From Candidatus Brocadia sp. (GTDB lineage: Bacteria > Planctomycetota > Brocadiia > Brocadiales > Brocadiaceae): DNA of 32,000 nt. Position numbers and translations under genes: made by a program. The stretch spans positions 3,930,001 to 3,962,000 of the forward strand of contig CP091279.1 of the NCBI GenBank assembly GCA_021650915.1. The letters run 5' to 3'. Position 1 is the stretch's first letter. The number at the start of each line of letters is the position of its first letter. Below, in pieces: positions 17,062 to 32,000 of this stretch. The notes under the pieces were generated by a model. It saw only the letters and a program-made list of their open reading frames with translations. It was not told the origin of the DNA and ran no database searches.

Positions 17062-17645
17062 GAATATTTTAACAGCACTTTTTGAAAGCGTGTTTTCCCG
17101 CGAGCCCGTCAGATCAGAAGGCATTGACACCGCGCGCGCCCCACCCGCCGCTTGCTCCTTCAGGGGCTCTGTAACCTCACCACCCAGGTTCTTCAGATGC
17201 AGGAGCGCAGGCAACACCCCGTTCAAAAAAGAAAGAAATCGTGGATTTGCCGTGGATTCGTAATTATTCAGCGTATCTTCAAACCTAAATGTCCATGGCA
17301 AACAAGATCAGACAATAAGCAGGGAATTTGAAGCCTGAAAGGCCATCAGGATAGAGCAGAGCATGAAGCCATCTCCTGTCTTTGGATAACAAAAACAGCA
17401 AGCCCCGATGGGCAGAAGGACTTTATGAAAAAGCCATCTGAATTCCTTTCACCCGTTCAGGACAAATCATAATATTATCCATTTTCAGGAGGCTTTGCCA
17501 CCTGCGATACCCTGTCTGCCCTTCTCAAGGAAAAAGACCATTTCCTATTATTTATTTTGGAAACCTTTTTCCATCATTTAGTGTTCTATCTTTGATTCTT
17601 AAAGAAGAATTATTTTCTATCACCTTTTTGTTGTGGATAACCTCT

Positions 17646-18788
17646 ATGAAAAAAAATTTTATATACTTGAGTGTTTGGACTGCTTTATTCATAAGTGCGT
17701 GCTCATCAGATAAAAAAAGCAGCATTAGCCATGAAAAATACCCTGTTACCAGCCCTATCGTGATGGATACGACATATACACATGATTATGTTGCAAATAT
17801 ACATTCTTTACAACACGTAGAGTTGAGCGCCAGGGTAAAAGGATATATAGAAAAAATTCATGTTGACGAAGGTGAAATCGTAAAGGCTGAGCAGGTTCTT
17901 TTTAGCATAAGCCCTCAGGAATATGAAGTGGAACTATTAAAAGCAAAGGCAATGCTGAAAAGCGCCATTGCAGATGCAAAGGCGGCCGAACTGGACGCGC
18001 AAAATGTAAAAATACTGGTAGAAAAAAATATTGTCGCAAAAACTGAACTTGAAATGGCGCAGGCTAAATTGGATGCACTTCATGCAAAGATTGATGAAGC
18101 AAAATCCTATATGGCAAGCGCGGAACTAAACTTGTCTTATACCGTAATAAAGGCGCCATTTGATGGAATCATTGACAGGATTCCCAATAAAGCGGGAAGT
18201 TTAGTCGATGAAGGAACTTTGTTAACCACCCTTTCAGATAATAAAAAAGTATTTGCTTATTTTAATGTGCCTGAAAAAGAGTATCTGGATTTCACCACGC
18301 TCATAGACTCCGAAAAGAAGAGCGATGTGGTATTTGTTTTAGCCAATAATCAAATTCACAAGTATACAGGGTGTATCGATACCGTTGCAGGAAAAATCGA
18401 TAAAAACACCGGGAATATAGCCTTCAGGGCATGCTTTCCTAATCCGGAGCTTCTTTTAAGACAGGGTTCCAGCGGTGAAGTCAGGATAGTAAAAGAAGAA
18501 AAAAATGCCTTGGTCATTCCACAAAAAGCTACCTTTGAAATTCAGGATAAAATATATGTATTCACCGTAGACTCCGACGACATTATAAAAATGAAAAGCA
18601 TTGTTCCAAAGCTGCGCATCCCCCATTTATATGTAATTGAATCCGGACTATCTCCCAATGATAGAATTGTCTATGAAGGCATTCAACAGGCAAAGGAAGG
18701 AGACAAGATCATTCCTGAAGTAATTTCTATGAAACAAATCCTGGCGGAGCAATCAAGAGCTCAAGCCGTCCGTATGGCTCAGAATTAA
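17646..18788 (+). CDS. RND efflux periplasmic adaptor (membrane fusion protein, HlyD/AcrA family), lipoprotein
   Basis: ATG 17646 gives MKKNFIYLSVWTALFISAC, a lipobox ISAC. Also seen are the coiled-coil hairpin region (AELDAQNVKILVEKNIVAKTELEMAQAKLDAL), SYTVIKAPFDGII and beta-barrel segments. Confidence 0.85.
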   Translation: MKKNFIYLSVWTALFISACSSDKKSSISHEKYPVTSPIVMDTTYTHDYVANIHSLQHVELSARVKGYIEKIHVDEGEIVKAEQVLFSISPQEYEVELLKAKAMLKSAIADAKAAELDAQNVKILVEKNIVAKTELEMAQAKLDALHAKIDEAKSYMASAELNLSYTVIKAPFDGIIDRIPNKAGSLVDEGTLLTTLSDNKKVFAYFNVPEKEYLDFTTLIDSEKKSDVVFVLANNQIHKYTGCIDTVAGKIDKNTGNIAFRACFPNPELLLRQGSSGEVRIVKEEKNALVIPQKATFEIQDKIYVFTVDSDDIIKMKSIVPKLRIPHLYVIESGLSPNDRIVYEGIQQAKEGDKIIPEVISMKQILAEQSRAQAVRMAQN

Positions 18789-18802
18789 TGAGAAAATAAA
18801 TA

Positions 18803-21800
18803 ATGAGTTCAAAATTTATCCATAGGCCAATTTTATCCATAGTGCTGTCTTTAATAATCACCCTATTGGGGGCGTTGGCTTTAGCCAAATTGCCAATGGA
18901 ACAATTCCCCAGTATAGCTCCGCCCGTGGTAAACGTTACCATCGAGTTTACCGGCGCCAACGCGGAAACCGTTACAAAAGCCGTCATTGTGCCTCTGGAA
19001 CGCGCTATCAATGGCGTTCCGGGAATGAAATATATGTCGTCTATTTCGGGAAATGATGGCATGGGTATTGTGCAAGTCATTTTTGAGGTAGGCACCGACC
19101 CTGACATTGCTGCGGTAAATGTTCAAAACAGAGTGGGCACCGTAGTGGACGAGCTTCCTGCGGAAGTAATAAAAAACGGAGTAAAAATTGCCAAGGAAGA
19201 GCGCGCTATGCTGATGTATTTAGACATCTTCAGCACCGATAACACACTAGAAGAAAAATTCCTCTACAATTTTGCGGATATCAACATACTGCCAGAATTA
19301 AAAAGAATTGATGGAGTTAGTTATGCAGATATATTGGGCGCTAAGGAATACGCAATGCGTATCTGGCTAAAACCCGACAAAATGCTTAACTATAATATTT
19401 CTACTGATGACGTGCTGATTGCGCTACGGGAACAAAACGTAGAAGCAGCGCCGGGTACCGTAGGGGAAAGTTCAGATAAATCAGCCCAGGCATTGCAATA
19501 CGTAATAAAGTACACGGGGAGGTATAACACCGAAGAACAGTATGAAAATATTCCTGTAAAATCGAATGCTGACGGCGGGATACTTCGCATGAAAGATATT
19601 GCTGATGTGGAGTTTGGCACCATTTATTTTGATGTAGAGTCAAAACTGAACGGCAGGCCTGCTGCTTCAATTATCCTGAAGCAGTTGCCAGGCTCCAATG
19701 CCAGTGAAGTAATTGGTAAGGTAAAAAAGCGCATAGCTGAGATTAAAGACACTACCTTCGTTGAGGGTATGGATTATGCAATTAGTTATGACGTGTCGCG
19801 TTTTTTAGACGCCTCCGTTCATAAGGTGTTAAAAACGTTAGTTGAGGCGTTTTTGCTGGTATCATTGGTGGTATTTATTTTTCTGCAGGATTGGCGTTCA
19901 ACACTCATTCCCGCGATTGCCGTACCTGTTTCACTGATTGGCACACTCTTTTTCATGCAGTTATTGGGATTCTCTTTGAATCTTATTACCCTTTTTGCGT
20001 TAGTGCTTGCCATAGGCATTGTCGTGGATAATGCCATCGTGGTGGTAGAAGCGGTGCATGCAAAAATGGAACACTCAAATATCGGGGCAAAGAAGGCCAC
20101 GGAAAAGGCGATGAGAGAAATCAGCGGCGCCATCATTGCAATTACCCTGGTAATGTCTGCAGTGTTTATTCCAACGTCTTTTATGTCAGGCCCTGTTGGC
20201 GTTTTTTATAAGCAGTTCTCTATTACCATCGCCATCGCTATTGTTCTCTCAGGCATCGTTGCGTTAACGCTTACCCCGGCGCTGTGCGCTTTATTTTTAA
20301 AAAACCCACACAACAAACACAAAAAGAAAAATTTCCTCCATTATTTTTTTCATGGTTTTAACAGATGGTATGAAAGTCTTTCGGCAAAGTATCAAAGGCT
20401 GCTAGGTCTTATTATCAACCGCAAGGTTGTTACCTTCTCAATATTGCTGTTATTTTGCGCCGGAACGGGTATTTTTGGAAAACTCCTGCCTTCAGGGTTT
20501 ATCCCCAATGAAGACCAGGGGACATTTTATGCCAGCATCACTACCCCTCCCGGCTCGACGTTGGAAAGAACAAAAGAAGTAGTAAGTGAAGTGCAAAAAG
20601 TATGTGAGGAGATTGGAGCCATCGAGTCTGTTTCTTCCTTAGCGGGGACAAATATCTTGTCTGATGGAACGGGAGCGACTTACGGTACGTGCTTAATCAA
20701 CTTAAAAGACTGGCATGACAGAAAGGAATCTGTTAACGAAATCATTGAATTAGTTGCCGAAAAAACGAGACACATTAAAGACGCAAAAATTGAATTCTTC
20801 CCTCCGCCGGCCGTGCCCGGCTATGGAAATGCCAGCGGTTTTGAATTAAGGTTGCTGGATAGAACCGGCAGCGGAGATGTTAAAAAGATGGAAACGGTAG
20901 TCAACCAGTTTATCACGGACTTAAAAGACCGGCCTGAAATATCAAGGGCATTCACCATTTTTGATGCTAGCTATCCGCAATACATGGTTCATATTGATAA
21001 TGATAAGGCCGCTCAAAAAGGGGTGACCGTTAATGATGCGATGAGTACCTTGCAAACCTTATTGGGAAGCGAATACGCCACGAATTTCATTCGCTTTGGC
21101 CAAATGTACAAAGTAATGGTGCAGGCGCTGCCTGAATACCGGGCAAAGCCTGAAGATATCCTCAAATTATATGCAAAAAACAATGAAAATAAAATGGTGC
21201 CTCTATCCGCCTTTATGACGATGGAGCGCATCTATGGCATGGATCAGATTACCCGTTACAATATGTATCAATCTGCAGAGCTGAACGGAGAGGCTGCCCA
21301 AGGCTATAGCAGCGGAAGCGCTATCGCAGCCATTCAGGAAGTAGCCAAAGAAAAATTACCGAAAGGTTACAGCATAGATTGGGCTGGTATAACCCGCGAT
21401 GAAATACTATCCGGCAATGAAGCCATCTATATTTTTCTTATTTGTCTGGTATTTGTGTATCTGTTGTTATCTGCACAGTATGAGAGTTTTCTCCTGCCCA
21501 TGCCCGTTATCCTCTCTTTGCCGACCGGGATATTCGGGGCATTTTTACTCTTGATGGTCATGGGTTTGGAAAACAATGTTTATGCCCAGGTAGCTATGAT
21601 TATGCTTATCGGATTGCTCGGTAAAAATGCCATTCTGATTGTTGAATTTGCCACATTAAAACACCGGGAAGGGCGAACGCCTGTACAAGCAGCCATTGAA
21701 GGAGCCACCGTGAGGTTGCGCCCAATCCTCATGACCTCTTTTGCCTTTATCGCCGGATTGATTCCCTTGATGCTTGCAACCGGTGCAGGCGCTGTGGGTA

Positions 21801-21958
21801 ATAGAACCATAGGTGCCGCTGCGGCGGGAGGCATGCTGTTCGGAACAATATTCGGAGTAATTATTATTCCCGGGCTGTATGTCGTCTTTGCAACCCTTGC
21901 AGAAGTGTTTGCGCGGAAAGGCGTCAAGGAAGCAATAGCATTTACAGAAACCGTTTAA
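18803..21958 (+). CDS. RND efflux transporter permease (AcrB/HAE1-like), 1051 aa
   Basis: It starts FIHRPILSIVLSLIITLLG. It has 12 TM segments with two large periplasmic loops, and AIGIVVDNAIVVVE and GLLGKNAILIVEFA are the conserved TM4/TM10 regions. Confidence 0.95.
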   Translation: MSSKFIHRPILSIVLSLIITLLGALALAKLPMEQFPSIAPPVVNVTIEFTGANAETVTKAVIVPLERAINGVPGMKYMSSISGNDGMGIVQVIFEVGTDPDIAAVNVQNRVGTVVDELPAEVIKNGVKIAKEERAMLMYLDIFSTDNTLEEKFLYNFADINILPELKRIDGVSYADILGAKEYAMRIWLKPDKMLNYNISTDDVLIALREQNVEAAPGTVGESSDKSAQALQYVIKYTGRYNTEEQYENIPVKSNADGGILRMKDIADVEFGTIYFDVESKLNGRPAASIILKQLPGSNASEVIGKVKKRIAEIKDTTFVEGMDYAISYDVSRFLDASVHKVLKTLVEAFLLVSLVVFIFLQDWRSTLIPAIAVPVSLIGTLFFMQLLGFSLNLITLFALVLAIGIVVDNAIVVVEAVHAKMEHSNIGAKKATEKAMREISGAIIAITLVMSAVFIPTSFMSGPVGVFYKQFSITIAIAIVLSGIVALTLTPALCALFLKNPHNKHKKKNFLHYFFHGFNRWYESLSAKYQRLLGLIINRKVVTFSILLLFCAGTGIFGKLLPSGFIPNEDQGTFYASITTPPGSTLERTKEVVSEVQKVCEEIGAIESVSSLAGTNILSDGTGATYGTCLINLKDWHDRKESVNEIIELVAEKTRHIKDAKIEFFPPPAVPGYGNASGFELRLLDRTGSGDVKKMETVVNQFITDLKDRPEISRAFTIFDASYPQYMVHIDNDKAAQKGVTVNDAMSTLQTLLGSEYATNFIRFGQMYKVMVQALPEYRAKPEDILKLYAKNNENKMVPLSAFMTMERIYGMDQITRYNMYQSAELNGEAAQGYSSGSAIAAIQEVAKEKLPKGYSIDWAGITRDEILSGNEAIYIFLICLVFVYLLLSAQYESFLLPMPVILSLPTGIFGAFLLLMVMGLENNVYAQVAMIMLIGLLGKNAILIVEFATLKHREGRTPVQAAIEGATVRLRPILMTSFAFIAGLIPLMLATGAGAVGNRTIGAAAAGGMLFGTIFGVIIIPGLYVVFATLAEVFARKGVKEAIAFTETV

Positions 21959-22064
21959 TTGGAGAGGAATTTATATTTTATTTAAGCGGCTTTCACCGTG
22001 GCACAGACAAACTATTATTTGTCGGCGTCTTCAGCCCCTTGGTAAACCCTCATAACTATTAAGC

Positions 22065-22874
22065 ATGATCAATTCATCGGTACGAAAATTACAAATAAGC
22101 GCTTTCTTAACATTCATAGGGATTAATATCAGGTTCCTTTCGGAAAATGTTTTTAATGCTCTTGTTTTTCTTAATATTCTCCAGTCTGGAAATCCTGATA
22201 ACAAGTATGATTTTCATACGCCAGGCGTCCCGGATGTGTATGGAGACGCAGCAGTCGTTGTTGTGTTTGCCGTTGCATATCTACTCCACAAGTCTGCAAG
22301 TGAAACTATTGTTTTACATATTATGGATTACCTGTATGAGAGACGCAGGCAACGTTTCAAAACTATCAGATATCTAAAAAACTGTATTATCTGGTCAAAA
22401 AAGAACTTTTTTTTAGTTATTACAGGCTTCGGTCTGTATATGGTATCCAAATATCCTTTATCGATAGGATTAGAGCTCATTTTTATTGAGGATATTACGA
22501 CGTTATCTTTTATCCTGAATGTTCTTAGAGGTATAACACTATGGTACTCCTCTTTTATTTTTTGCAGTGTTTATTGCAAGTATCTATTCATAAGTAAATC
22601 TGCCGCTCTCATGATGCATACATTTTTTGTCATAAGGAATCTTTTTGATACCAATGTGTATTGGTTAATTACCTCCTACGACTTGCATATAGGCGCACCT
22701 TTATTAGATGTTTTATCGCCTATCATTATTGTTTATTCAGTAATTTACATCATAGTTAACGGTGGCATATCAAGCCGGATTTTTCACTCTTTAAAAAATG
22801 ATAAACATGAATTTGCACACATGAAAAAGGGCGCCTCCCTTACCGTAAAAGACCTGTCTTTAATTCCCGGATAA
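22065..22874 (+). CDS. Hypothetical polytopic membrane protein embedded in the efflux operon
   Basis: An uninterrupted 269-codon ORF in very AT-rich (stop-rich) sequence. It has several hydrophobic segments and ends 4 nt before the OMF start. No family motif was recognised. Confidence 0.55.
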   Translation: MINSSVRKLQISAFLTFIGINIRFLSENVFNALVFLNILQSGNPDNKYDFHTPGVPDVYGDAAVVVVFAVAYLLHKSASETIVLHIMDYLYERRRQRFKTIRYLKNCIIWSKKNFFLVITGFGLYMVSKYPLSIGLELIFIEDITTLSFILNVLRGITLWYSSFIFCSVYCKYLFISKSAALMMHTFFVIRNLFDTNVYWLITSYDLHIGAPLLDVLSPIIIVYSVIYIIVNGGISSRIFHSLKNDKHEFAHMKKGASLTVKDLSLIPG

Positions 22875-22878
22875 ATCA

Positions 22879-24339
22879 ATGGAAAAATTTAAAAATACCG
22901 TGGTTTTTGGATGTGTGGTTACCTGCTTACTTTTAGCTGGTTGTCAAACAACAAAGAGCACTGAAGATAGCCCCATAAAACCAATACCTGAATCATTTGC
23001 AAGTACGAAAGATTCAACAAATTCAGCAATGATTGACTGGCGGCAGTTTTTCTCTGATGCGACATTAATTGGTTTGATAGATACGGCCTTAAAAAATAAC
23101 CTGGATGTGTTGATGACCTTGCAAAAAATCGAAATTGCACGGGCAGATCTGAAATTGCGCAAAGGCGCTTTGCTGCCGGAAATTTCCGGTGGTGGTTCTG
23201 TTGCACAAAGAAGATTCGGACGATACACGATGGATGGCGCCGGAAACAGAGCAACGGAGATTACTCCTGGGCAAATAGTGCCTGATGACCTTCCCGATTA
23301 TTTTATCGGTTTGCAAACAACCTGGGAAGTGGATATCTGGGGCAAGCTTCGTAATAAGAAGAAGGCCGCATTTGCCCGTTATCTTAGCAGCATCGAAGGA
23401 AAAAACATCGTACTTACCAACTTAATTGCAGAAATAGCAATTACCTATTATGAATTATTAAGTTTAGATACTGAATTGGAAATTATCAAAGAAACCATCC
23501 ATCTGCAGGAAAACGCACTTTCCATTGTTGCCATCCAAAAACAAGCTGCCGCAGCCAATGAGTTGGCTGTACAGCAGTTTGAGGCGCAATTGTTGAATTC
23601 AAGGGCACTGGAAGTTGAATTCCTCCAAAGAATTACCGTGTGTGAAAACAGAATAAACTATTTATTGGGCAGATTTCCACAACCGATCATGCGTAAAAAA
23701 TCAATTCTTCCAAAGGAAATTCCTGCCCAGGTAAAGGTCGGCATTCCATCCGATTTGTTAGAAAACAGGCCTGATATAAAACAAGCTGAGTTTGAATTAA
23801 TGGCCACAAAAGCAGACGTCAAATCAGCAAAGAAGGCATTTTATCCTTCCTTTAATATTACCGGGGCAATGGGTTTCCAGGCTTTCAATACCTCGTATCT
23901 ATTCAGATCACCGGAATCCATTGCATACGCGGTAATGGGCACTTTAACCGCCCCAATAATTAACCGGAGTGCGATTCAGGCGCAATTTAAAACGGCGCAG
24001 GCTAAACAGGTAGAGGCATTGTACCAGTATCAAAAAGCAATTATTAATGGGTACATAGAAGTATATAATGAAATGCATAATATTAAGAATCTGGAGCGGG
24101 CATACAACCTTATCACTAAAAAAGTGACGGCTTTAACTCAATCGATAGAAATATCGTCGGAACTATTCAAGACCGGCAGAGCAAATTACTTAGAGGTATT
24201 GATAACACAACAAAACGCACTCCAGTCAAAATTAGAATTGGTAAGCACCAAACAACAGCAATTCAACGCCAGTGTAAACATTTACAAGGCGCTTGGCGGC
24301 GGTTGGAGACAGATGAAAGAAAAGCCTACGCAAGGATAA
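22879..24339 (+). CDS. Efflux outer membrane factor lipoprotein (NodT/TolC family)
   Basis: The lipobox is LLLAGCQ. The body has two repeats of the TolC-like helical/beta pattern and ends in the family-typical NIYKALGGGW. Confidence 0.9.
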   Translation: MEKFKNTVVFGCVVTCLLLAGCQTTKSTEDSPIKPIPESFASTKDSTNSAMIDWRQFFSDATLIGLIDTALKNNLDVLMTLQKIEIARADLKLRKGALLPEISGGGSVAQRRFGRYTMDGAGNRATEITPGQIVPDDLPDYFIGLQTTWEVDIWGKLRNKKKAAFARYLSSIEGKNIVLTNLIAEIAITYYELLSLDTELEIIKETIHLQENALSIVAIQKQAAAANELAVQQFEAQLLNSRALEVEFLQRITVCENRINYLLGRFPQPIMRKKSILPKEIPAQVKVGIPSDLLENRPDIKQAEFELMATKADVKSAKKAFYPSFNITGAMGFQAFNTSYLFRSPESIAYAVMGTLTAPIINRSAIQAQFKTAQAKQVEALYQYQKAIINGYIEVYNEMHNIKNLERAYNLITKKVTALTQSIEISSELFKTGRANYLEVLITQQNALQSKLELVSTKQQQFNASVNIYKALGGGWRQMKEKPTQG

Positions 24340-24515
24340 GAGCATCCGAATGTTTTTCAGAAAAAAGTGTTTTTGTTCAGAATGAATTACTTCTCTGCAT
24401 CACCTTCCGGCACATAGATTACCTTTCCATCTTTTAACCGATAAGCTGTTCCCAACCAGGCGTCTTCTCCCTGTAGTTTTTTATCGGGAACCTTTTCAAT
24501 TATTATCTGCTTTTC

Positions 24516-24720
24516 GATTCTTCCAGGCGGAATCTGACAGGGACTGCCACCTTGGATTTCACAGAGAGGTCTCCCCTCCGTTCAGGTTGAAATCTCCAAT
24601 GCCTCACTTCTTTTAATCCTCCCGATCAAGGGGTTGATAGCCACTACTCTGTTCAACTTCAACCTGAATCGGCATACCTTTCTTATCTACTTCTACCATG
24701 AACAACACCAATCCTTCATG
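24516..24720 (-). pseudogene. Decayed duplicate of the TonB C-terminal domain (no N-terminus; in-frame TAA plus a 1-nt deletion)
   Basis: It aligns base for base with 29209-29413, the 3' end of intact tonB. Its translation is HEGLVLFMVEVDKKGMPIQVEVEQSSGYQPLDRED* / VRHWRFQPERRGDLSVKSKVAVPVRFRLEE. The tonB equivalent is QEGLVILRVEIDSKGIPVQVEVEQSSGYQLLDRAALKAVRHWRFQPERIGDLPVKSVVAIPVRFRLEE. Confidence 0.8.
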
Positions 24721-24796
24721 TTATAAATACGAAAAATCTTTATTGCAATTAATCCTCTATTATCTTATAAACGGCAAGATTGAAAGGAGGTTAAAT

Positions 24797-24963
24797 ATGC
24801 CATCTGCGAGTACCATACGTAAAGCAAAACTGACAGTAACAATCAGTGGTGTGTGGTTAATGAAATAGACGAAATTGCAAAAGAAAAAGGTACCCCAAGG
24901 AGTCAGGTTATGGAAGAAATGTTACGTGATTGGTTGCTGAAATCCAAAAAGAAAATGATATAA
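24797..24963 (+). pseudogene. Ribbon-helix-helix (CopG/antitoxin-like) gene with a frameshift
   Basis: AAGGAGG precedes the ATG at 24797. That frame reads MPSASTIRKAKLTVTISGVWLMK*. The +1 frame continues VVNEIDEIAKEKGTPRSQVMEEMLRDWLLKSKKKMI*. The switch lies in a GTGTGTGG run. Confidence 0.55.
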
Positions 24964-24977
24964 TTACTGAATGCAGC

Positions 24978-25946
24978 CTAATCCTCATACGGCCCTAGGA
25001 ATCGTTCACCGTTGAAATGGATCAAATGCGTCGGGGTTTCTGCAATCCAGACTTCTGTTTCCCAAGAAATTTCTTCGAGGTATTTCATCATGGCTTTTCG
25101 ATCAAGAAAAGCCGTCACATACACTATGCCAACTTTTGATCCGGCAAACAGCGTCTTTAATTCTTGCCTACGCTTCGGGTTTACGGGACCATGGCTAATA
25201 ACTGCCTCTATCAGAACAAGCCAGTTCTTCTCAACGTGATGCACCACGACATCCGGCATCTTTCCATGCTCTTCTATCTCAATAGCCAACTCCTTAAGCG
25301 CATCGGAATCGAAATATGCCCATTTCGTCTCCGTGTCGCCTACGTATATTACACGTCCCCCTGGGATAAAAAGCGGACAAAAATCGTCTATGATCTTTTT
25401 AATCAATACATTCTGGCCACCTGGCGAAAGACTGAGCTTGCGGCCATTTGATAGCTTAACAGGAATCCGGCGCATATCTCGCTCTCGCGCATAGAGCTTC
25501 TTCAAAGTCTTGAACGCATGCAGATACGAGCGCAAATGGCTACCCCAGGAGGGCCTCCCAAACTCCCGAAACAGCTTCAATGCGAAAGGCTCTATCTGGT
25601 AGACTGCTTGGGGGCTATTTGTCGGTCTCAAAGGTTTATCAGGATTAGGCACAATCACCCCCGCCTGCATAAATTGATGAACCGTCTGTCGGCGTACCGT
25701 CTCCCTGGTATTTGGTGCGTATCGCTTGCCATAATGCACAGCAAAGAACTCCATCATGGGTGTAACACCAATTAATGGGTCGCTTGCGCCCTCCCACGCA
25801 TCGTCAGGTTTGAGGTTCAACAGCGAAAGAAGTGTCAATGCTGAACGCTCATTCTGTTGCTGTCGAGGAAAACCAAGCATTTTTAATATCTCCAGTGCTT
25901 CCTTGATTTTTCGTTCGGCCTTCTTTGTGTCGATTTTTTTAGCCAT
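24978..25946 (-). CDS. Type II restriction endonuclease, BsuBI/PstI family
   Basis: LGFPRQQQNERSALTLLSLLNL...PLIGVTPMMEFF..YGKRYAPNTRETVRRQTVHQF...NPDKPLRPTNSPQAVYQIEP...LIHFNGERFLGPY matches the conserved blocks I recall for this family. At 322 aa it is close to R.PstI in size. Its start overlaps the methylase stop (ATGGCTAA). Confidence 0.8.
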   Translation of the reverse strand: MAKKIDTKKAERKIKEALEILKMLGFPRQQQNERSALTLLSLLNLKPDDAWEGASDPLIGVTPMMEFFAVHYGKRYAPNTRETVRRQTVHQFMQAGVIVPNPDKPLRPTNSPQAVYQIEPFALKLFREFGRPSWGSHLRSYLHAFKTLKKLYARERDMRRIPVKLSNGRKLSLSPGGQNVLIKKIIDDFCPLFIPGGRVIYVGDTETKWAYFDSDALKELAIEIEEHGKMPDVVVHHVEKNWLVLIEAVISHGPVNPKRRQELKTLFAGSKVGIVYVTAFLDRKAMMKYLEEISWETEVWIAETPTHLIHFNGERFLGPYED

Positions 25947-27459
25947 TGATACCGCATTCCGTTTCCAATATCTCGTCTACCATTGCCTGATCTGGCATTT
26001 GATGTTTTATGTGAGCACCGAGCCTCAGCAGTTGCTCGTGAGAAGGATAACGCATCTTTCTCAGGTCAGTGGCGTTGACCTGTGTATGTCCACTGAAAAG
26101 GCGAAAGTACTGATCGAAGAGCGAAGAATTTAGATATAAAGCCAGCCCTTTCGCTAAATTTGCCGATAAGCCTTTACCTTTCGCATGAAAATAATTAAGA
26201 TGGTTCTCAAAACCGACAAGCGCAGCTTCAACCCTGTTGGGGTCGTATATCGCAGCTACGACACGGCGTGGCTCCTCCTTTGTCGAGAAACGCTTTGTGA
26301 GAACATAGTATCCTGCCGGTAACACTAAATCCATTGTCTGTGGCGAAACTGCAATAGCATTTGGCTTTTTTCCTGATTCAGCGGGCCAACTTACAAAGCC
26401 AGACACAAAGTGGCAAGGATATATAAGCGGAGATGTCCCCTCTTCCGGTAAATAGCGGAGATATTCCTGAGCGCGAAAGTCCACAACTCTCCCTGTTGAG
26501 ACATCCACCCCAAGTATGACGAGCGAAGTCGCAAATGCCTCCATCTTCTCCATCAGGCGGTCGTCGGTATCGTTCAATACAAGATGAATGAAAGCATCGC
26601 GATCGCCTGATAAAATAACGTGATCGTATGGAACAGAGCGACTCCTTGATTTGTCAAAGTCCGTACCTTCGGACGACGAGACTATTAATCGCTCCGGTTT
26701 TCGTTCACCCCGAATCATATGATAGATCACATTTTCCTGAAGCACATCGTCGTCCCTGAATGCCTTATTGCGTGACCCAAACACATGAATACGATGTAAG
26801 CTCATCATATTCAGCAGATTAATTCTAAACCGGCGGAAGTACGGCCCATTACAGAAACTTCGGGGCGTAATCGCTACCAATTCGCCTCCAGTCTCAAGCA
26901 ACTTAGCGGATAGCCATACAAACGCAGCATAAAGATTTGACACCCCAAACCCTGCAGCGTCTAGCAATTGGCGTGTTGTCGATTCCCCGACGATCTTCTT
27001 GTAAGGTGGATTGAGTATTACATGAGTGAAACGCTCCCTATGGACAGCAAACAGGCGTCCTTCTGCCTGCGCTATGACCGCCGCAATAAAGTCCTCCACC
27101 CGTATTTCCCCCTGAAAGGGAATACCGGCTCTCTGGCAGATCAACTTGCACCATTCCATGGTTTCTTTCAAGTACTGCAATATCTTCTGATCGTTCTCGT
27201 ATGCAACCACATGAATCGAAAGCGGACGATAATTCCTAGAAAGCAGTGTCTCTACACACGCCGCAAACAGAGTCCCCAATCCTGCACCTGCATCCAGAAT
27301 TCGCACGTGTTCTCTTTCACGCTCAAACAATGATGCCATAAACAGCGCAATCCTGGCAGGTGTCAGGAACTGGCCAATCCTTGAGCGTTCTAGTCGGCAG
27401 CTACTGCCGTTCACTGAGTTACGGACACTATCGAGAATGTTTGTTAATTCAACAGTCAT
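25939..27459 (-). CDS. N6-adenine DNA methyltransferase (gamma class), partner of the BsuBI/PstI-type endonuclease
   Basis: The motif order is GQFLTP, then motif I (ILDAGAGLGTLF), then motif IV (ILNPPYKKI). The long C-terminal region is taken as the target-recognition domain. Confidence 0.85.
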   Translation of the reverse strand: MTVELTNILDSVRNSVNGSSCRLERSRIGQFLTPARIALFMASLFEREREHVRILDAGAGLGTLFAACVETLLSRNYRPLSIHVVAYENDQKILQYLKETMEWCKLICQRAGIPFQGEIRVEDFIAAVIAQAEGRLFAVHRERFTHVILNPPYKKIVGESTTRQLLDAAGFGVSNLYAAFVWLSAKLLETGGELVAITPRSFCNGPYFRRFRINLLNMMSLHRIHVFGSRNKAFRDDDVLQENVIYHMIRGERKPERLIVSSSEGTDFDKSRSRSVPYDHVILSGDRDAFIHLVLNDTDDRLMEKMEAFATSLVILGVDVSTGRVVDFRAQEYLRYLPEEGTSPLIYPCHFVSGFVSWPAESGKKPNAIAVSPQTMDLVLPAGYYVLTKRFSTKEEPRRVVAAIYDPNRVEAALVGFENHLNYFHAKGKGLSANLAKGLALYLNSSLFDQYFRLFSGHTQVNATDLRKMRYPSHEQLLRLGAHIKHQMPDQAMVDEILETECGING

Positions 27460-27546
27460 AATAAATATGGTTTTATCGTCTATCTTTTTCCTCTGGACTA
27501 ATACACAAAAACAGGGATGCTGTATAGTGTTTGCTGGGTTTTCTTA

Positions 27547-28413
27547 TTAGCCAATAATTTCCTCTATGTTTGTTAGTTTCGCCACTATGTCCACATGATC
27601 ACCGTTAACATATTCTTTAGAGATACAACATTTTTTAAATTTCTTTCCACTTCCGCAATAACATGGGCTGTTTCTTTTCTTCTTTTGAAACTCATGGTTT
27701 TTTGCTTTCTTCTTACTAAATTGCAATTCTCCAAAGTCAAATGGTTGTAATTTGTTTGTTGTAATTAATTCTGATAAAAAACGTATCAGCTCAAATTGTT
27801 CCCCGTTGTCATCGTATACCACTACACAGCGCTTATCTGCTGGATGTTTAACCATAGCCACATGATCTGTCTCGACAACATTATGAGCAATTCCATACGC
27901 CATCTGGCCTCTATATAACTCTCCCCTAGTGTGATGACAATCGAAAGTGTCTATGTCCCTTCCACAGATGCTACACTCGAACCTCTCCACAGTAATCCCA
28001 ACACTACAGAAAACACGGTACGGATATAATTTCTCCAATTCTAGTAGCTGGTTCTCAAAAAAACTTACGGCTTGGTTTGTATTTCGGCTCGAAAACTTTT
28101 TTACCTGCCTTAGTTGATCGAGGGCGTCCTGAAGGGAATTCCAGGAGGAAGAAAATTCCATTTTAATGATTTTCTTCCACAGATCGCAGTACGAAGACAG
28201 CATATCAACGAATCTGCTCAATACGTAAAATTCATTGAGTACTTCCTCGTGACTCGCTTTATGTTCTTCTTTTGCGACCGTTAAATTGTTTTTTAGTTGA
28301 TCAATTTGTTCTCTACACTCTTGAAAACTCAAATGGTTCGAGAAATAAAACAACTTCTTAATGGATGGTTTTGATTTTCTATACAGAGATTCTACTTCAG
28401 AGGTGATGAACAT
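27547..28413 (-). CDS. Hypothetical protein: helical N-terminal region, CxxC..CHH cluster, C-terminal SEC-C-type zinc motif
   Basis: It is 288 aa. The cysteine cluster is ECSICGRDIDTFDCHH and the C-terminal motif is NSPCYCGSGKKFKKCC. Its ATG directly abuts the stop of the upstream ORF. No enzyme family was recognised. Confidence 0.65.
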   Translation of the reverse strand: MFITSEVESLYRKSKPSIKKLFYFSNHLSFQECREQIDQLKNNLTVAKEEHKASHEEVLNEFYVLSRFVDMLSSYCDLWKKIIKMEFSSSWNSLQDALDQLRQVKKFSSRNTNQAVSFFENQLLELEKLYPYRVFCSVGITVERFECSICGRDIDTFDCHHTRGELYRGQMAYGIAHNVVETDHVAMVKHPADKRCVVVYDDNGEQFELIRFLSELITTNKLQPFDFGELQFSKKKAKNHEFQKKKRNSPCYCGSGKKFKKCCISKEYVNGDHVDIVAKLTNIEEIIG

Positions 28414-28911
28414 TTACTTGTCCATGAACTTGTTCAAATCGAATTGTTTGATGGTTTTTTGCAATCCATCGACATCACCTTCAAAATGGAACTTTTTAAC
28501 AACGCCTTCTTGTTTGTCTTCATACATGGCTTCCAAATGAATCCGTCCTTTCTCTCCTCGTAATGCCCCTTTCATTCGGTCATAAACGTAATTTGTAACG
28601 AGATTAAGATAAAAGGGGAGAGCAACGTCTTGGGCAAGAAAAACAAGCGGTAGCCAAAAATCGCTAGACTTCAACACTAACCGCTTATCGGCTTTACGCA
28701 CTTCGACATTTAGCTCTGGTTTGTTTTTCCGCAACCATTTTGAAAAATCGCCAGCATCAGGCTTTAATACCAGACCTTCGCATCCTTGATATTTTTCAGG
28801 AGTAATCAAAATGCCAGACAGTGATGAATTTAAGAAATTCCTGAATTCTTTGTCATCATCAACAATGACAACCTCACATGAGTCTTTGTTGTCGAAGATA
28901 TCCATATTCAT
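28414..28911 (-). CDS. Hypothetical 165-aa protein, first gene of the cassette
   Basis: An uninterrupted ORF in AT-rich DNA with AGGTAGGT 5 nt upstream of the ATG. It contains a hydrophobic stretch, FWLPLVFLAQDVALPFYLNLV. No family was recognised. Confidence 0.6.
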   Translation of the reverse strand: MNMDIFDNKDSCEVVIVDDDKEFRNFLNSSLSGILITPEKYQGCEGLVLKPDAGDFSKWLRKNKPELNVEVRKADKRLVLKSSDFWLPLVFLAQDVALPFYLNLVTNYVYDRMKGALRGEKGRIHLEAMYEDKQEGVVKKFHFEGDVDGLQKTIKQFDLNKFMDK

Positions 28912-28982
28912 GATACCTACCTAGGCTATACTGTTTCTATGCAGTCTTTTTTTGCGGTTGTAAAGGAAGTTTGTATTGTAAA

Positions 28983-29010
28983 TGTATAATAAAATAAGCT
29001 ATTCTGTCAA
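28983..29010 (-). promoter_or_regulatory. Sigma70-like promoter for the cassette (and possibly the R-M genes)
   Basis: On the minus strand, TTGACA (complement of 29005-29010) is followed by a 16-nt spacer and then TATACA (complement of 28983-28988). This lies about 70 nt upstream of ATG 28911. Confidence 0.4.
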
Positions 29011-29207
29011 CAAGGATTTAACATCCAGGAATTTCCAACTAGCCACACAGTCACTAAGTTTTTTAATTTGTGCCTTGAGGTTTTCGGGGCGGCGGAATTG
29101 AGAGATTTTATGAGTTATTTTTTAAGGATGTTTAGGTGTTGTTTTGACGAATAATATATTGAGTATATACTTTTCATTCTTTTACATCATCTTTTGCATT
29201 CCGTGCC

Positions 29208-30047
29208 TTATTCTTCCAGGCGAAATCTAACAGGGATTGCCACCACGGATTTAACAGGTAGGTCTCCTATTCGTTCAGGTTGAAATCTCCAATGCCTCAC
29301 TGCCTTTAAGGCCGCCCTATCAAGGAGTTGGTAGCCACTGCTCTGTTCAACTTCAACCTGAACCGGTATACCTTTTGAGTCTATCTCTACCCTGAGTATC
29401 ACGAGTCCTTCCTGACGCATTTGTCTTGCAAGCTGGGGGTATTCCGGCGGTTGATTCTGGAAATAACCCGGTCTGCTTTTCGTTCTGATCGTCCCGAGAG
29501 AAGACTGCGGCATGGTTTTAACTGTTTCATGCTGCTTTTCTTTTGGTGAAGCAACGGATTGAGCAGTATCCGTATTTGGGTGAGGCCGTGCCATCTGCTC
29601 TTCCCGCGGCGTAATCTTAACTGTTTCCTGTTGCCTTTCCGTTGTGGACGCATCAGGCATAACGGTGTCTGTCTCCGGTTTCGGCAGTGTCTCAACCGCC
29701 ACCTGCTGTCTTTCCGCTGTGGGTGTAGATGATTGCGTCGTAGCCACGTTTGGTTGCGCCGGAGCCTCCGGTTTTTCCTGCGGCACAGCTTTCATAACTT
29801 CCTGCTGTTTTTCCATTGCAGGTGTAACGGACTGAACCGACTCCGTATCGGTTTGTGACACGGCAGTCAACAGATCAACGTCGATGCTCCCCGTGTCAGA
29901 TTGAACGCTGTACTGAACAGGCTTACCATAATACTTTCCGCCAACCAAAAACAAGGCGCCATGAATGGATAATGCAAGGATAAATGCCTTAATTATGCCG
30001 TAGGTACCGGGTTTAATCTTGAAATAGCCGAATCTTTCTCTTGTCAT
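29208..30047 (-). CDS. tonB: Energy transducer TonB
   Basis: It has an N-terminal TM anchor (IIKAFILALSIHGALFLV), a long Pro/Glu/Thr/Gln-rich linker and a C-terminal TonB domain (PPEYPQLARQMRQEGLVILRVEIDSKGIP..VEVEQSSGYQLLDRAALKAVRHWRFQP). It overlaps exbD by 4 nt. Confidence 0.85.
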   Translation of the reverse strand: MTRERFGYFKIKPGTYGIIKAFILALSIHGALFLVGGKYYGKPVQYSVQSDTGSIDVDLLTAVSQTDTESVQSVTPAMEKQQEVMKAVPQEKPEAPAQPNVATTQSSTPTAERQQVAVETLPKPETDTVMPDASTTERQQETVKITPREEQMARPHPNTDTAQSVASPKEKQHETVKTMPQSSLGTIRTKSRPGYFQNQPPEYPQLARQMRQEGLVILRVEIDSKGIPVQVEVEQSSGYQLLDRAALKAVRHWRFQPERIGDLPVKSVVAIPVRFRLEE

Positions 30048-30466
30048 TTTTGCAAAGGTTCTCCCAGCTTTGTCTGAATGGCAACTTTCGTGATTCCTGA
30101 AGACCTTACCTCGTCAAGTATTTGAATAGCAGCGCCAAAATAGGCTTCCCTGTCCCCATTAATAAAGACTCTTGTGTCAGGATTTTCTGTCTTTAATTGT
30201 TTCAAGCGCCCGGATAAAAGGCCTGGAGCCAGTTTTTCCTGATTCAGGTATACATCTCCCGACTTTGTGACGGTGATGGTTACCGCCGCCTCACGCTCTT
30301 GAGGGTTGCCGGTAACGGCGGAAGGCAAATTCACGCTGATGCCCTGATTCTTGACCATCGAAAGAGAAACCACTACAAAGGTAGCCAAAAGAAAAAATAT
30401 GACATCAATAAGCGGAATAATCTCTATCCTTGCCCTCCGCCTGGTTGCTGGTAGTGGTATCTTCAT
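30044..30466 (-). CDS. exbD: Biopolymer transport protein ExbD/TolR
   Basis: EIIPLIDVIFFLLATFVV is the single TM. At 140 aa it has a periplasmic domain reading VFINGDREAYFGAAIQILDEVRSSGI. Confidence 0.85.
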   Translation of the reverse strand: MKIPLPATRRRARIEIIPLIDVIFFLLATFVVVSLSMVKNQGISVNLPSAVTGNPQEREAAVTITVTKSGDVYLNQEKLAPGLLSGRLKQLKTENPDTRVFINGDREAYFGAAIQILDEVRSSGITKVAIQTKLGEPLQK

Positions 30467-31071
30467 GAGTTTTTATCCTGTTTTAAAAGTAAAAGTTCGA
30501 GATGTGCAGTGGCATCCTCAATTTCATGCCTGGCTTCTTCAAGGCGCGCATTGAGATAGTTAAACGGAATAAGCGCGACAATGGCGGTGAGAAGGCCGTA
30601 TGCGGTGGCAATTAAGGCCTCGGCAATGCCGCCGGTGATAACCGCAGGCGCCTCAAGCTCTCTGCCTCCCAGAAGACCAAAGGCTTGTATCATACCGATC
30701 ACCGTACCAAAAAGACCCAGGAGCGGCGCAAGGGTGATAATCGTGTCAAGCACCGGAAGCCCCCGGTTAAAGCGCTTCAGTTCCTTATTTGCAGCCTGCA
30801 AAAGGGCATTTGAAAAGGCTTTGTGACGGTGGCGAAGACCGTAAACAAGGGTAACGGCGACAAAATCACCACATCCTTCTCCTGCCTGTATCGCTTCTTC
30901 AATTTTTCCTTTCTCAACTTCAGAAAATATCTTTCCTACCGTTTCCGGGTACCTTGATCTTTTTTCTCGGATAAGAAATGCAATCCGCTCTATAATTACG
31001 GTTAAGGCCGCCAAAGACGCAACGAGGATAGGCCACATGACAGGTCCCCCTCTTAAGAATAAATGAACCAT
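30463..31071 (-). CDS. exbB: MotA/TolQ/ExbB proton-channel protein
   Basis: It has three TM segments and the conserved LDTIITLAPLLGLFGTVIGMI..F and GIAEALIATAYGL blocks. Confidence 0.85.
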   Translation of the reverse strand: MVHLFLRGGPVMWPILVASLAALTVIIERIAFLIREKRSRYPETVGKIFSEVEKGKIEEAIQAGEGCGDFVAVTLVYGLRHRHKAFSNALLQAANKELKRFNRGLPVLDTIITLAPLLGLFGTVIGMIQAFGLLGGRELEAPAVITGGIAEALIATAYGLLTAIVALIPFNYLNARLEEARHEIEDATAHLELLLLKQDKNS

Positions 31072-31090
31072 TTTTTACTCCTTTTAAAAA

Positions 31091-32000
31091 TTAGAACCGG
31101 AAAGCCAATGCAGCACGCACCGCAATGGGTTCGACCGGTTTAAAATGAATGTCATTATGCGAAGCGCCCTCATCTTTCAAGCGCGATGGATAATAATAAT
31201 CAATCTCGTGGTCCTCGTTGTTGAGGAGATTGAAACCCTCGACACTGAGAGTCCAGTTTTTGTTGAAATTGTAGCCCGCTTTTGCACTCAGCAGCCTGGT
31301 GGATCCGGAGCGAATACTATTGTCTTCCGTAAGAGGGCGAGGGCCAAAAAACCGCAACCGTAGTTCACTGAAGAGGCCACGCTCACCTGGCTGATGGAAT
31401 GCAATTCCTGTGGATATAACGCTGTCAATTGCGCCGGGGATGTGTCTGCCCTGCACTCCTTCACCCTCAACAGTTTCGCTAAACTCAGCGTGCGAAAATG
31501 AGAAATCAGCGTCCAGAGAGAGCCATTGGGCGGGCGTATAGTAATTTGTCCACTCGACGCCATAACGTCTCGTCGGGGCGCTGGCTTCAGTGCTGCCAGC
31601 GTCTCCGGAAAAAACGAGCTCAGAATCCATATCCAGCAACCATAACGCCAGCGTGCTTTGCAATCCCTTAACAATCGTCGTGCGCACACCAATTTCCGCC
31701 CCTTTTGTGCGCACTAAAGGATCTGCGGATTCCACAGCGTCTCCCGTTTTTGGATCAACCTGTTGCGTCACGCCGTTCCCGGAATTGCTGTGGAAACCGA
31801 AGCCTCCGCTCAAATAATACTCCGTTTTGGCCCAGGGGCCGAAGACAAGCGACCCTTTGGGGCTAACGATCGCGTCATCTCGCGTGCCAGAGTTGGCGGA
31901 TAAATCACTATTCACATCGAAGTGGTAATAATCCATCCGTAATCCGAAAACCGTGCGGAATTTGTCAGCCCATTGAATCTTGTTCTCGACATAGGGAGAG
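31091..32000 (-). CDS. TonB-dependent outer-membrane receptor, C-terminal beta-barrel (5' end outside window)
   Basis: The frame stays open to the window edge (SPYVENKIQWADKFRTVFGLRMDYYHFD...). It shows alternating amphipathic beta-strands and ends ...AALAFRF, with the aromatic terminal residue typical of OM barrels. Confidence 0.8.
   Translation of the reverse strand, partial: SPYVENKIQWADKFRTVFGLRMDYYHFDVNSDLSANSGTRDDAIVSPKGSLVFGPWAKTEYYLSGGFGFHSNSGNGVTQQVDPKTGDAVESADPLVRTKGAEIGVRTTIVKGLQSTLALWLLDMDSELVFSGDAGSTEASAPTRRYGVEWTNYYTPAQWLSLDADFSFSHAEFSETVEGEGVQGRHIPGAIDSVISTGIAFHQPGERGLFSELRLRFFGPRPLTEDNSIRSGSTRLLSAKAGYNFNKNWTLSVEGFNLLNNEDHEIDYYYPSRLKDEGASHNDIHFKPVEPIAVRAALAFRF

Follow-up and report, generated by a model that had tools for sequence, protein, structure and literature searches.

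A translationally coupled gene pair in a Candidatus Brocadia islet combines a fragment related to phage prohead proteases with a SEC-C knuckle and is a candidate defence module

The window examined here is a 32,000-nucleotide stretch of the Candidatus Brocadia sp. genome (assembly GCA_021650915.1, contig CP091279.1, positions 3,930,001 to 3,962,000), in which two minus-strand genes that we call A and B lie directly upstream of a PstI-type restriction–modification (R-M) system (Table 1). An earlier note, made from the nucleotide sequence alone, had put the pair forward as a candidate novel defence system. The open reading frames (ORFs) of A (165 aa) and B (288 aa) meet at the junction ...GAC AAG TAA/ATG TTC..., with zero bases between the stop and the start. 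The methylase gene begins 87 bp downstream of the B stop on the same strand, and the start of the endonuclease gene overlaps the methylase stop; the 87-bp gap contains no terminator-like site or hairpin. The GC content is 0.36-0.38 across the pair compared with 0.46-0.48 across the R-M genes. The abutting frames, the shared strand and spacing, the missing terminator and the more AT-rich composition had all been described in the earlier note, and all were found as described. The sigma-70-like promoter that it proposed stands only in part. The TTGACA-16-TATACA hexamers are present, and as the region holds 8 promoter-like sites where 8.7 are expected from shuffled sequences, the site has no statistical weight and is a consensus match only. 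We found no Rfam RNA elements within positions 24300-29400.

Table 1. Features of the A/B locus in the 32,000-nucleotide window, followed by genes that neighbour the pair at homologous loci (L numbers)
Feature	Position	Strand	Description
Gene A	28414..28911	-	165 aa ORF; alpha/beta protein, family not detected; upstream partner of B
Gene B	27547..28413	-	288 aa ORF; helical N-domain, zinc-ribbon beta-domain and SEC-C knuckle
A conserved hydrophobic segment, residues 85-105, FWLPLVFLAQDVALPFYLNLV	28597..28659	-	most conserved part of the A family
B N-terminal five-helix domain, residues 1-127	28033..28413	-	AF2 helices 5-127; invariant W91
B segment 136-198 (prohead-protease-like)	27820..28008	-	holds S137, C147, C150, C159, H161, Y167, G169, P191, K194
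B SEC-C zinc knuckle, residues 247-263, PCYCGSGKKFKKCC	27625..27675	-	PF02810, 5.2e-8
Sigma-70-like hexamers 5' of A	28981..29010	-	TTGACA-16-TATACA (29010-28983) or TTGACA-18-TACATT
Type II N6-adenine methyltransferase (PstI-type)	25939..27459	-	Eco57I/N6_Mtase; PADLOC MTase_II 2e-163
BsuBI/PstI-family restriction endonuclease	24978..25946	-	PF06616 3e-63; PF17728 2e-51; PADLOC REase_II 3e-135
Small RHH_1 (CopG-like) ORF	24698..24963	+	convergent with the endonuclease gene; split over two frames here
Direct repeat, left copy (intact tonB 3' end)	29210..29414		repeat families D1/D2; TonB_C match
Direct repeat, right copy (decayed, frame-broken tonB 3' remnant; far islet border)	24517..24720		79-87% identity to 29210-29414
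Locus L003 neighbours			Mrr nuclease, NACHT, HEPN/MNT
Locus L004 neighbours			E1-E2-JAB, integrase
Locus L005 neighbours			HNH, ResIII, type I S/M fragments, ParE, MazE, Fic
Locus L007 neighbours			integrase, AbiEi, type IIG R-M, NERD, 2061-aa AAA protein
Locus L185 neighbours			TIR, GIY-YIG, OLD-TOPRIM/AAA_21 (Gabija-like), PIN, SIR2-STAND
Locus L186 neighbours			ApeA, Druantia-like operon
Locus L187 neighbours			HigB, HipA, PLD
Locus L188 neighbours			integrase, another PstI-type R-M (4 kb from the pair), MobA relaxase
Locus L189 neighbours			integrase, SIR2, SMC-like, FRG, DpnII, caspase
Loci L037 and L029 neighbours			L037: Mrr-nSTAND3; L029: CHAT

A and B form an obligate, translationally coupled pair. 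A search of 5.8 billion proteins returned 236 homologues of B and 60 of A, the closest database protein to B being a 100% identical one from Candidatus Brocadia sp. From the encoding contigs together with the GTDB species representatives we obtained 44 loci with B, and at each of the 44 a homologue of A lies immediately 5' of B on the same strand, either abutting it or overlapping it by at most ~20 nt. The partner was recognised with a hidden Markov model (HMM) at 43 of these loci and by BLAST clustering at the 44th (locus L043). Clustering of all neighbouring proteins of the examined loci gave no third conserved gene. The earlier note had named co-occurrence of the two genes as a test of its proposal, and the pair withstands it at all 44 loci.

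The pair is found across more than 10 phyla, on plasmids and in an archaeal virus. Its hosts include Planctomycetota, Nitrospirota, Desulfobacterota, Actinomycetota, Chloroflexota, Verrucomicrobiota, Bacillota and Bacteroidota, as well as Gamma- and Betaproteobacteria (Vibrio furnissii, Photobacterium, Aliidiomarina, Burkholderia, Paraburkholderia and Rhodoferax). This patchy distribution is clearly horizontal, and the module is autonomous and spreads horizontally. A profile of the B beta-domain matches 1090 clusters (clustered at 50% identity) and reaches E<=1e-10 for 222 of these; part of the weaker matches are related phage proteases.

Distant versions of the pair, with B identities of 24-26%, occur in three further settings, two of them plasmid and one viral. 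On an 8.7-kb Acinetobacter plasmid the pair adjoins AbiEii and YafQ genes. A distant pair is also carried on 206 plasmid records, mostly from (clinical) Enterobacterales, of which 176 are predicted to be conjugative. This plasmid variant is shortened and uncoupled; on the IncHI2 plasmid pEho7-1 of Enterobacter hormaechei (L090 5380-6642), proteins of 126 aa and 235 aa are encoded 174 bp apart and adjoin an FRG-domain gene, and an FRG gene is likewise near the pair in locus L189. In the Halorubrum pleolipovirus Humcor2 (MW344764.1; L091 3420-4828), the distant pair lies between Rep and the structural genes and consists of a 181-aa protein and, directly abutting it, a 'CxxC motif protein' of 287 aa that has no SEC-C. 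The small partners of the distant pairs align collinearly with A (hhalign probabilities of 86% to 5%) and have the hydrophobic segment and an F-E-G-D/P...L-Q motif in common with it. We considered a phage-borne origin of the pair and rejected it: among the best 80 loci of IMG/VR (2.9 million viral contigs), 79 match SEC-C alone, and the single true B homologue sits at a contig edge.

The AlphaFold2 (AF2) model of B, with a predicted local distance difference test score (pLDDT) of 90, places a helical N-terminal domain before the zinc-ribbon beta-domain. A Foldseek search of the PDB returned no fold match for the helical domain, and reading of its sequence revealed no HEPN-type Rx4-6H motif. 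The SEC-C knuckle belongs to its Pfam family, scoring 33 bits against a gathering score of 20.4, and is inserted between two strands in a low-confidence loop (pLDDT 61-69). By a motif regular expression, not an HMM, it is missing in 43 of 129 superfamily representatives with a B-type N terminus. Its absence from a third of the relatives and the low-confidence loop in which it is modelled suggest an element that is accessory and serves for docking. Across 105 diverse relatives, W91, S137, C147, C150, C159, H161, Y167 and G169 are 100% invariant, and F135 and P191 (both 99%) and K194 (95%) are nearly so. The earlier note had singled out the long helical N terminus, an ECSICG...DCHH cysteine/histidine cluster and the SEC-C-type motif in the larger protein. 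All three are borne out, by the model of helices 5-127, by the invariance of the four cluster residues C147, C150, C159 and H161, and by the Pfam match to residues 247-263 (5e-8).

By profile comparison, the beta-domain of B derives from one half of a zinc-ribbon phage prohead protease, the half that bears the Ser, and it keeps the nucleophile-equivalent Ser137 and a predicted Cys3His zinc site. Residues 136-201 match phrog_16951, a PHROGs family of 'unknown function', at 1.8e-9, and by tblastn B is 36-38% identical to ORFs in gut phage contigs. Local hmmsearch between the B segment and phage proteases gives 20-42 bits, and alignment of the beta-domain with seven proteases by hhalign gives a probability of 98% (E 2.3e-13) over 61 columns (B 136-198 with protease 135-197). 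Foldseek against BFVD returns 'prohead protease' entries at probabilities of 0.99-1.0 with weak E-values. The homologous phage ORFs lie between the portal and major capsid genes; the one in Flavonifractor phage Cormatin, annotated 'major head and protease protein', lies between the portal and major head genes. Residues 32-140 of one phage homologue match Pfam Peptidase_S78_2 (XkdF) at 4.6e-5, just below the cut-off.

With the XkdF/HK97-type prohead proteases B has in common the strand of the presumed nucleophile Ser (E-x-S-V-G-C in phage, F-x-S-x-G in B, with S137 in 105 of 105 relatives) and a G-x-x-Y-x-G motif followed by a core strand ('VPAQ') that ends in Pro; with one subfamily of them it also shares the CxxC...CxH zinc ribbon. 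What B lacks is the N-terminal half of these proteases, which bears the invariant DH motif with the catalytic His. Residues 1-127 of B form a helical bundle instead and give no Pfam S78 match. B relatives vary at the position of the Glu that is conserved in the phage 'AYEWS' motif. Whereas the phage protease genes sit between portal and capsid genes, B is never so placed in the contexts examined, and unlike the proteases it carries a SEC-C knuckle and has an obligate partner gene. The earlier note had recognised no enzymatic family, which stands insofar as no full family fits and requires amendment insofar as part of a phage prohead serine protease is present in B.

The resemblance of the phage 'DH' motif to a C-terminal 'DHVDIV' in B prompted the idea of a rewired or permuted Ser137-His273-His184 triad. 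We rejected this for the family as a whole, since His is found at the position of H184 in 36% and at that of H273 in 67% of relatives. A Ser137/Lys194 dyad or a non-catalytic binding role for B is possible. A is unrelated to the protease, and the idea that it supplies the missing N-terminal half of a split protease was rejected as well (hhalign probability 1.6%). In the phrog_16951 protease subfamily itself, the CxxC...CxH zinc ribbon follows the catalytic-Ser strand (L092 2590-3528, L093 2596-3510 and L100 2501-3193), and no solved structure matches these zinc-ribbon proteases by sequence.

The smaller protein, A, is modelled by AF2 with a pLDDT of 87 as a compact alpha/beta fold, in which the conserved hydrophobic segment forms a buried strand (residues 85-92) and a helix (98-114). 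The family has the core motif W-L-P-L-V-F-L-A-x-D-V-x-L-P-x-Y-L-N-L-V and no conserved residues of catalytic type. The earlier note had rightly pointed to a hydrophobic stretch in this protein. Its maximal Kyte-Doolittle value over 19 residues is 1.56, against a family mean of 1.64 and values of 2.14 and 1.99 in the plasmid partners, and in these distant plasmid partners the segment looks like a true transmembrane helix. A has no match in Pfam, NCBIfam (June 2026), PADLOC v2 or PHROGs, and no fold match was found by Foldseek against the PDB (best E 0.1, compared with 1.0 for B). At 5 of the 44 loci A is frameshifted, interrupted by a nonsense codon or truncated, and B is intact at 44 of 44. 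This decay of A beside an intact B fits the loss of a costly effector and speaks against A as an antitoxin for a toxic B. In a 170-aa protein encoded on 14 contigs (P0167), the N-terminal ~125 residues of A are joined to the C-terminal ~45 of B; the fusion stems from a recurrent in-frame deletion that keeps SEC-C and the final strand of B, and represents a degraded form of the module.

Genes of known defence systems recur beside the pair in unrelated genomes. They lie within 8 kb in 10 of the 11 contexts annotated with Pfam (L001, L003, L004, L005, L007, L185-L189 and the Brocadia locus, with L001 as the exception), which is a raw count without a background rate. Enrichment near defence genes was a further check named in the earlier note, and the neighbourhoods are defence-rich in the sense of this count. 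At locus L007, the stop of the type IIG R-M gene overlaps the start of A. Among 130 immediate neighbours at the GTDB loci, R-M methylases, NERD proteins and integrases recur, as do metabolic and signalling genes. Defence genes and ordinary genes together mark the pair as residing in small variable islets that are often, not always, inside defence islands. At locus L187 (7588-8804) a fragment of an rve_3 integrase stands in place of A, and B is N-terminally shortened (267 aa).

In Brocadia, the pair, the methylase, the endonuclease and the small ribbon-helix-helix (RHH) ORF make up a ~4.7-kb block at the 3' end of tonB. We count this block as an insertion because a direct repeat of 204 bp, corresponding to the tonB 3' end (its last ~200 bp), flanks it on both sides, the copies being spaced 4693-4694 bp apart; broken ORFs with TonB C-terminal sequence are found in the right copy. 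The bracketing repeat indicates insertion with no integrase inside the block. The 'mobile island' of the earlier note is thereby kept as an insertion, while its mobility finds no counterpart in the window, where there is no integrase, transposase or tRNA. On either side lie an RND efflux operon (17592-24339) and a TonB-ExbD-ExbB-receptor operon (29208-31936). The arrangement of the block is identical in all Brocadia assemblies that carry B. For the Brocadia B protein, 27 of 41 index blocks are on contigs of only 2-5 kb whose ends fall close to the islet borders. Exact runs shared by the flanking repeats reach ~29 nt at most, which makes strain-level heterogeneity a likelier cause of these contig ends than repeat collapse. 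Two exact-match scans of metagenome contigs gave no match to an empty tonB/efflux junction.

Several smaller observations concern the block and its flanks. The RHH_1 ORF, which measures 55-88 aa where it is called in other Brocadia assemblies (L094-L098), could encode a controller of the R-M system or else an orphan antitoxin. In one of these assemblies (L094), a DUF2149 gene (1-333) lies upstream of the TonB-dependent receptor gene, and a weak 56-aa DUF2149 fragment (L094 9858-10028; window ~24386-24556) lies just past the islet. Together they suggest that a second flank has been duplicated, or that the surroundings of the TonB cluster underwent an older rearrangement. In the efflux operon, a 269-aa ORF without a Pfam match (22065-22874, plus strand) is located between the genes for an AcrB-type pump and an outer-membrane factor.

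We propose that A and B constitute a previously undescribed anti-phage or anti-mobile-element defence module, a reading for which we see an even chance. The candidacy raised in the earlier note is supported by the co-occurrence of the genes, by their defence-rich neighbourhoods and by the lack of any fitting family, the function itself being one that we infer from context. In a working mechanism that we regard as unlikely to be right in its entirety, B would be the sensing or catalytic core. A pocket formed by Ser137, the P191-x-D-K-R-C196 loop and W91 of the helical domain would bind or cleave a conserved ligand arising in the course of infection. The SEC-C knuckle of SecA, YecA and YchJ binds SecB or the ribosome, and by analogy that of B might dock the protein on one of these. 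A would be held in complex with B and act as the output: once released, its hydrophobic strand-helix would insert into the membrane and stop the infected cell, a form of abortive infection. Somewhat less doubtful, and still on the improbable side, is the broader idea of a new immune family in which a core exapted from half a phage head-maturation protease, joined to a helical domain and SEC-C, controls a latent membrane-inserting partner. The exapted B would then be either a rewired Ser (perhaps Ser/Lys) hydrolase or a mimic that engages an infection-specific ligand.

A number of points weigh against a defence role and against this mechanism. The role is one we infer by guilt by association, and some loci stand beside seryl-tRNA synthetase, glycine cleavage, glutamine synthetase or two-component system genes. 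B is unusually conserved, with identities of 45-60% across phyla; greater variability is usual in sensors co-evolving with phage proteins. With the His-bearing half of the protease missing and no substitute His found family-wide, catalysis by B is doubtful. The confident model of A is a soluble globular fold that buries the hydrophobic segment, and the hydrophobicity of that segment is only borderline (1.56). Several of the A 'frameshifts' may moreover be sequencing errors, as the contig names suggest long reads.

Among other explanations, the strongest is a toxin–antitoxin (TA) or addiction module in which the zinc-binding B neutralises a membrane-active toxin, A, and which stabilises the islets, plasmids and viruses carrying it and affects phages only secondarily. 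The compact, translationally coupled format fits, as do the small plasmid with TA/Abi genes, the conjugative plasmids, the pleolipovirus genome and the TA-rich neighbourhoods of L005 and L187. Decay of A with retention of B is the usual pattern of toxin loss and is only suggestive. A type II antitoxin usually has a DNA-binding domain; neither A nor B, however, has a helix-turn-helix (HTH), RHH or other antitoxin DNA-binding domain, or a known toxin domain or fold, and B is large, with enzyme-like invariant residues that are unusual for an antitoxin. We hold this explanation to be improbable, if worth keeping in view, and it overlaps with the defence reading in that many TA systems are themselves defence systems. 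Carriage by plasmids and an archaeal virus, recurrence beside R-M genes and the phage origin of the protease-derived domain would also suit a weapon or counter-defence device acting between mobile elements or against host immunity, for example by anti-restriction or superinfection exclusion. Only 1 true B homologue among the best 80 IMG/VR loci speaks against this, as does the fact that most copies are chromosomal and in defence-gene islands, not in leading or phage early regions, and we consider it distinctly unlikely.

A housekeeping or stress role tied to SecB or the ribosome, as in YecA and YchJ, with an incidental island position, would explain why the SEC-C of B is very close to the YchJ and SecA motifs, why housekeeping genes flank some loci and why the sequence is so conserved across phyla. 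The distribution is nonetheless patchy and clearly horizontal, the pair is within an inserted islet in this window, SEC-C is missing in a third of relatives, the N-domains of YecA and YchJ are not matched and the neighbourhoods are rich in defence genes, all of which makes such a role very unlikely. We give the least credence, next to none, to the idea that the pair serves the adjacent PstI-type R-M system as an accessory or regulator, in the manner of a controller or specificity factor. The shared strand, the 87-bp spacing without a terminator, the overlap of A with the type IIG R-M stop at L007 and the PstI-type R-M system 4 kb from the pair at L188 are what would recommend it. Most loci, however, have no adjoining R-M gene (such neighbours are found at a minority of loci), the R-M types differ where present, the GC content is ~10 points apart from that of the R-M genes here, and A and B contain no HTH, C-protein-like, specificity or modification domain.

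If the A/B pair is a defence system, a widespread family has been missed entirely by current defence annotation; its B beta-domain profile matches ~1,000 clusters at 50% identity, among them, at the weaker end, related phage proteases. If host immunity has indeed built one of its proteins around a piece of a phage morphogenetic protease, the case would bear on the origin of defence sensors. The distant pair on more than 200 plasmid records, mostly clinical Enterobacterales and conjugative, makes the module relevant to plasmid biology and phage therapy. Brocadia is genetically intractable, yet the hypothesis is directly testable in the cultured Vibrio, Photobacterium, Aliidiomarina, Burkholderia and Paraburkholderia that have homologues.

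The earlier note had also asked that known systems be excluded, and comparison with them leaves the proposal in place: there is no full-length match of the pair in PADLOC v2, Pfam or NCBIfam (2026), and Foldseek against the PDB was negative. Neither A nor B matches any system of PADLOC-DB v2.0.0 (5027 models) over its full length. In PADLOC v2, Pfam and NCBIfam, B is matched through SEC-C only, and in PHROGs by phrog_16951. PADLOC PDC-S12 and CBASS E2/E1-E2 have a C-terminal SEC-C-like stretch in common with B (E 2e-5 to 6e-5), and their alignment with it spans ~25 residues only. Sequence profiles of the PDB likewise match B only at SEC-C, through the C termini of YchJ and SecA. The C terminus of SecA, YecA, YchJ and the PBPRA1643 family (TIGR04102) have a C-x-C-x8-C-C knuckle nearly identical to that of B, the last aligning with B over 47 residues (217-263). 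For all of these protein families the match is limited to the motif and its flank, with scores far under the family cut-offs; YecA and YchJ reach 15-30 bits, in the SEC-C region only, against cut-offs of 120-158.

Two-gene abortive-infection systems with a small hydrophobic effector, as a general class, are alike in format: they too are compact coupled pairs of defence islands in which a larger sensor- or enzyme-like protein is combined with a small one that has a conserved hydrophobic segment. The pair is related to none of them in sequence or fold, and the prediction for A is a globular protein and no obvious membrane protein. In the literature searched, we found no description of an A/B pair. 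The one antiphage protein with SEC-C that it reports is Rugutis, an experimentally shown single-gene system of 359 aa with an N-terminal SEC-C from a lactococcal plasmid, which resembles B in combining the SEC-C motif with a remaining fold that is absent from the PDB (PMC11381338). It differs by its description, being one gene with SEC-C at the N terminus whereas A/B comprises two genes with SEC-C near the C terminus, and there are no Lactococcus plasmids among the tblastn matches of B. On present evidence the A/B family is an undescribed one, whose known parts are only the 17-residue SEC-C knuckle and the 61-residue phage-protease fragment, both in the larger protein of the pair.

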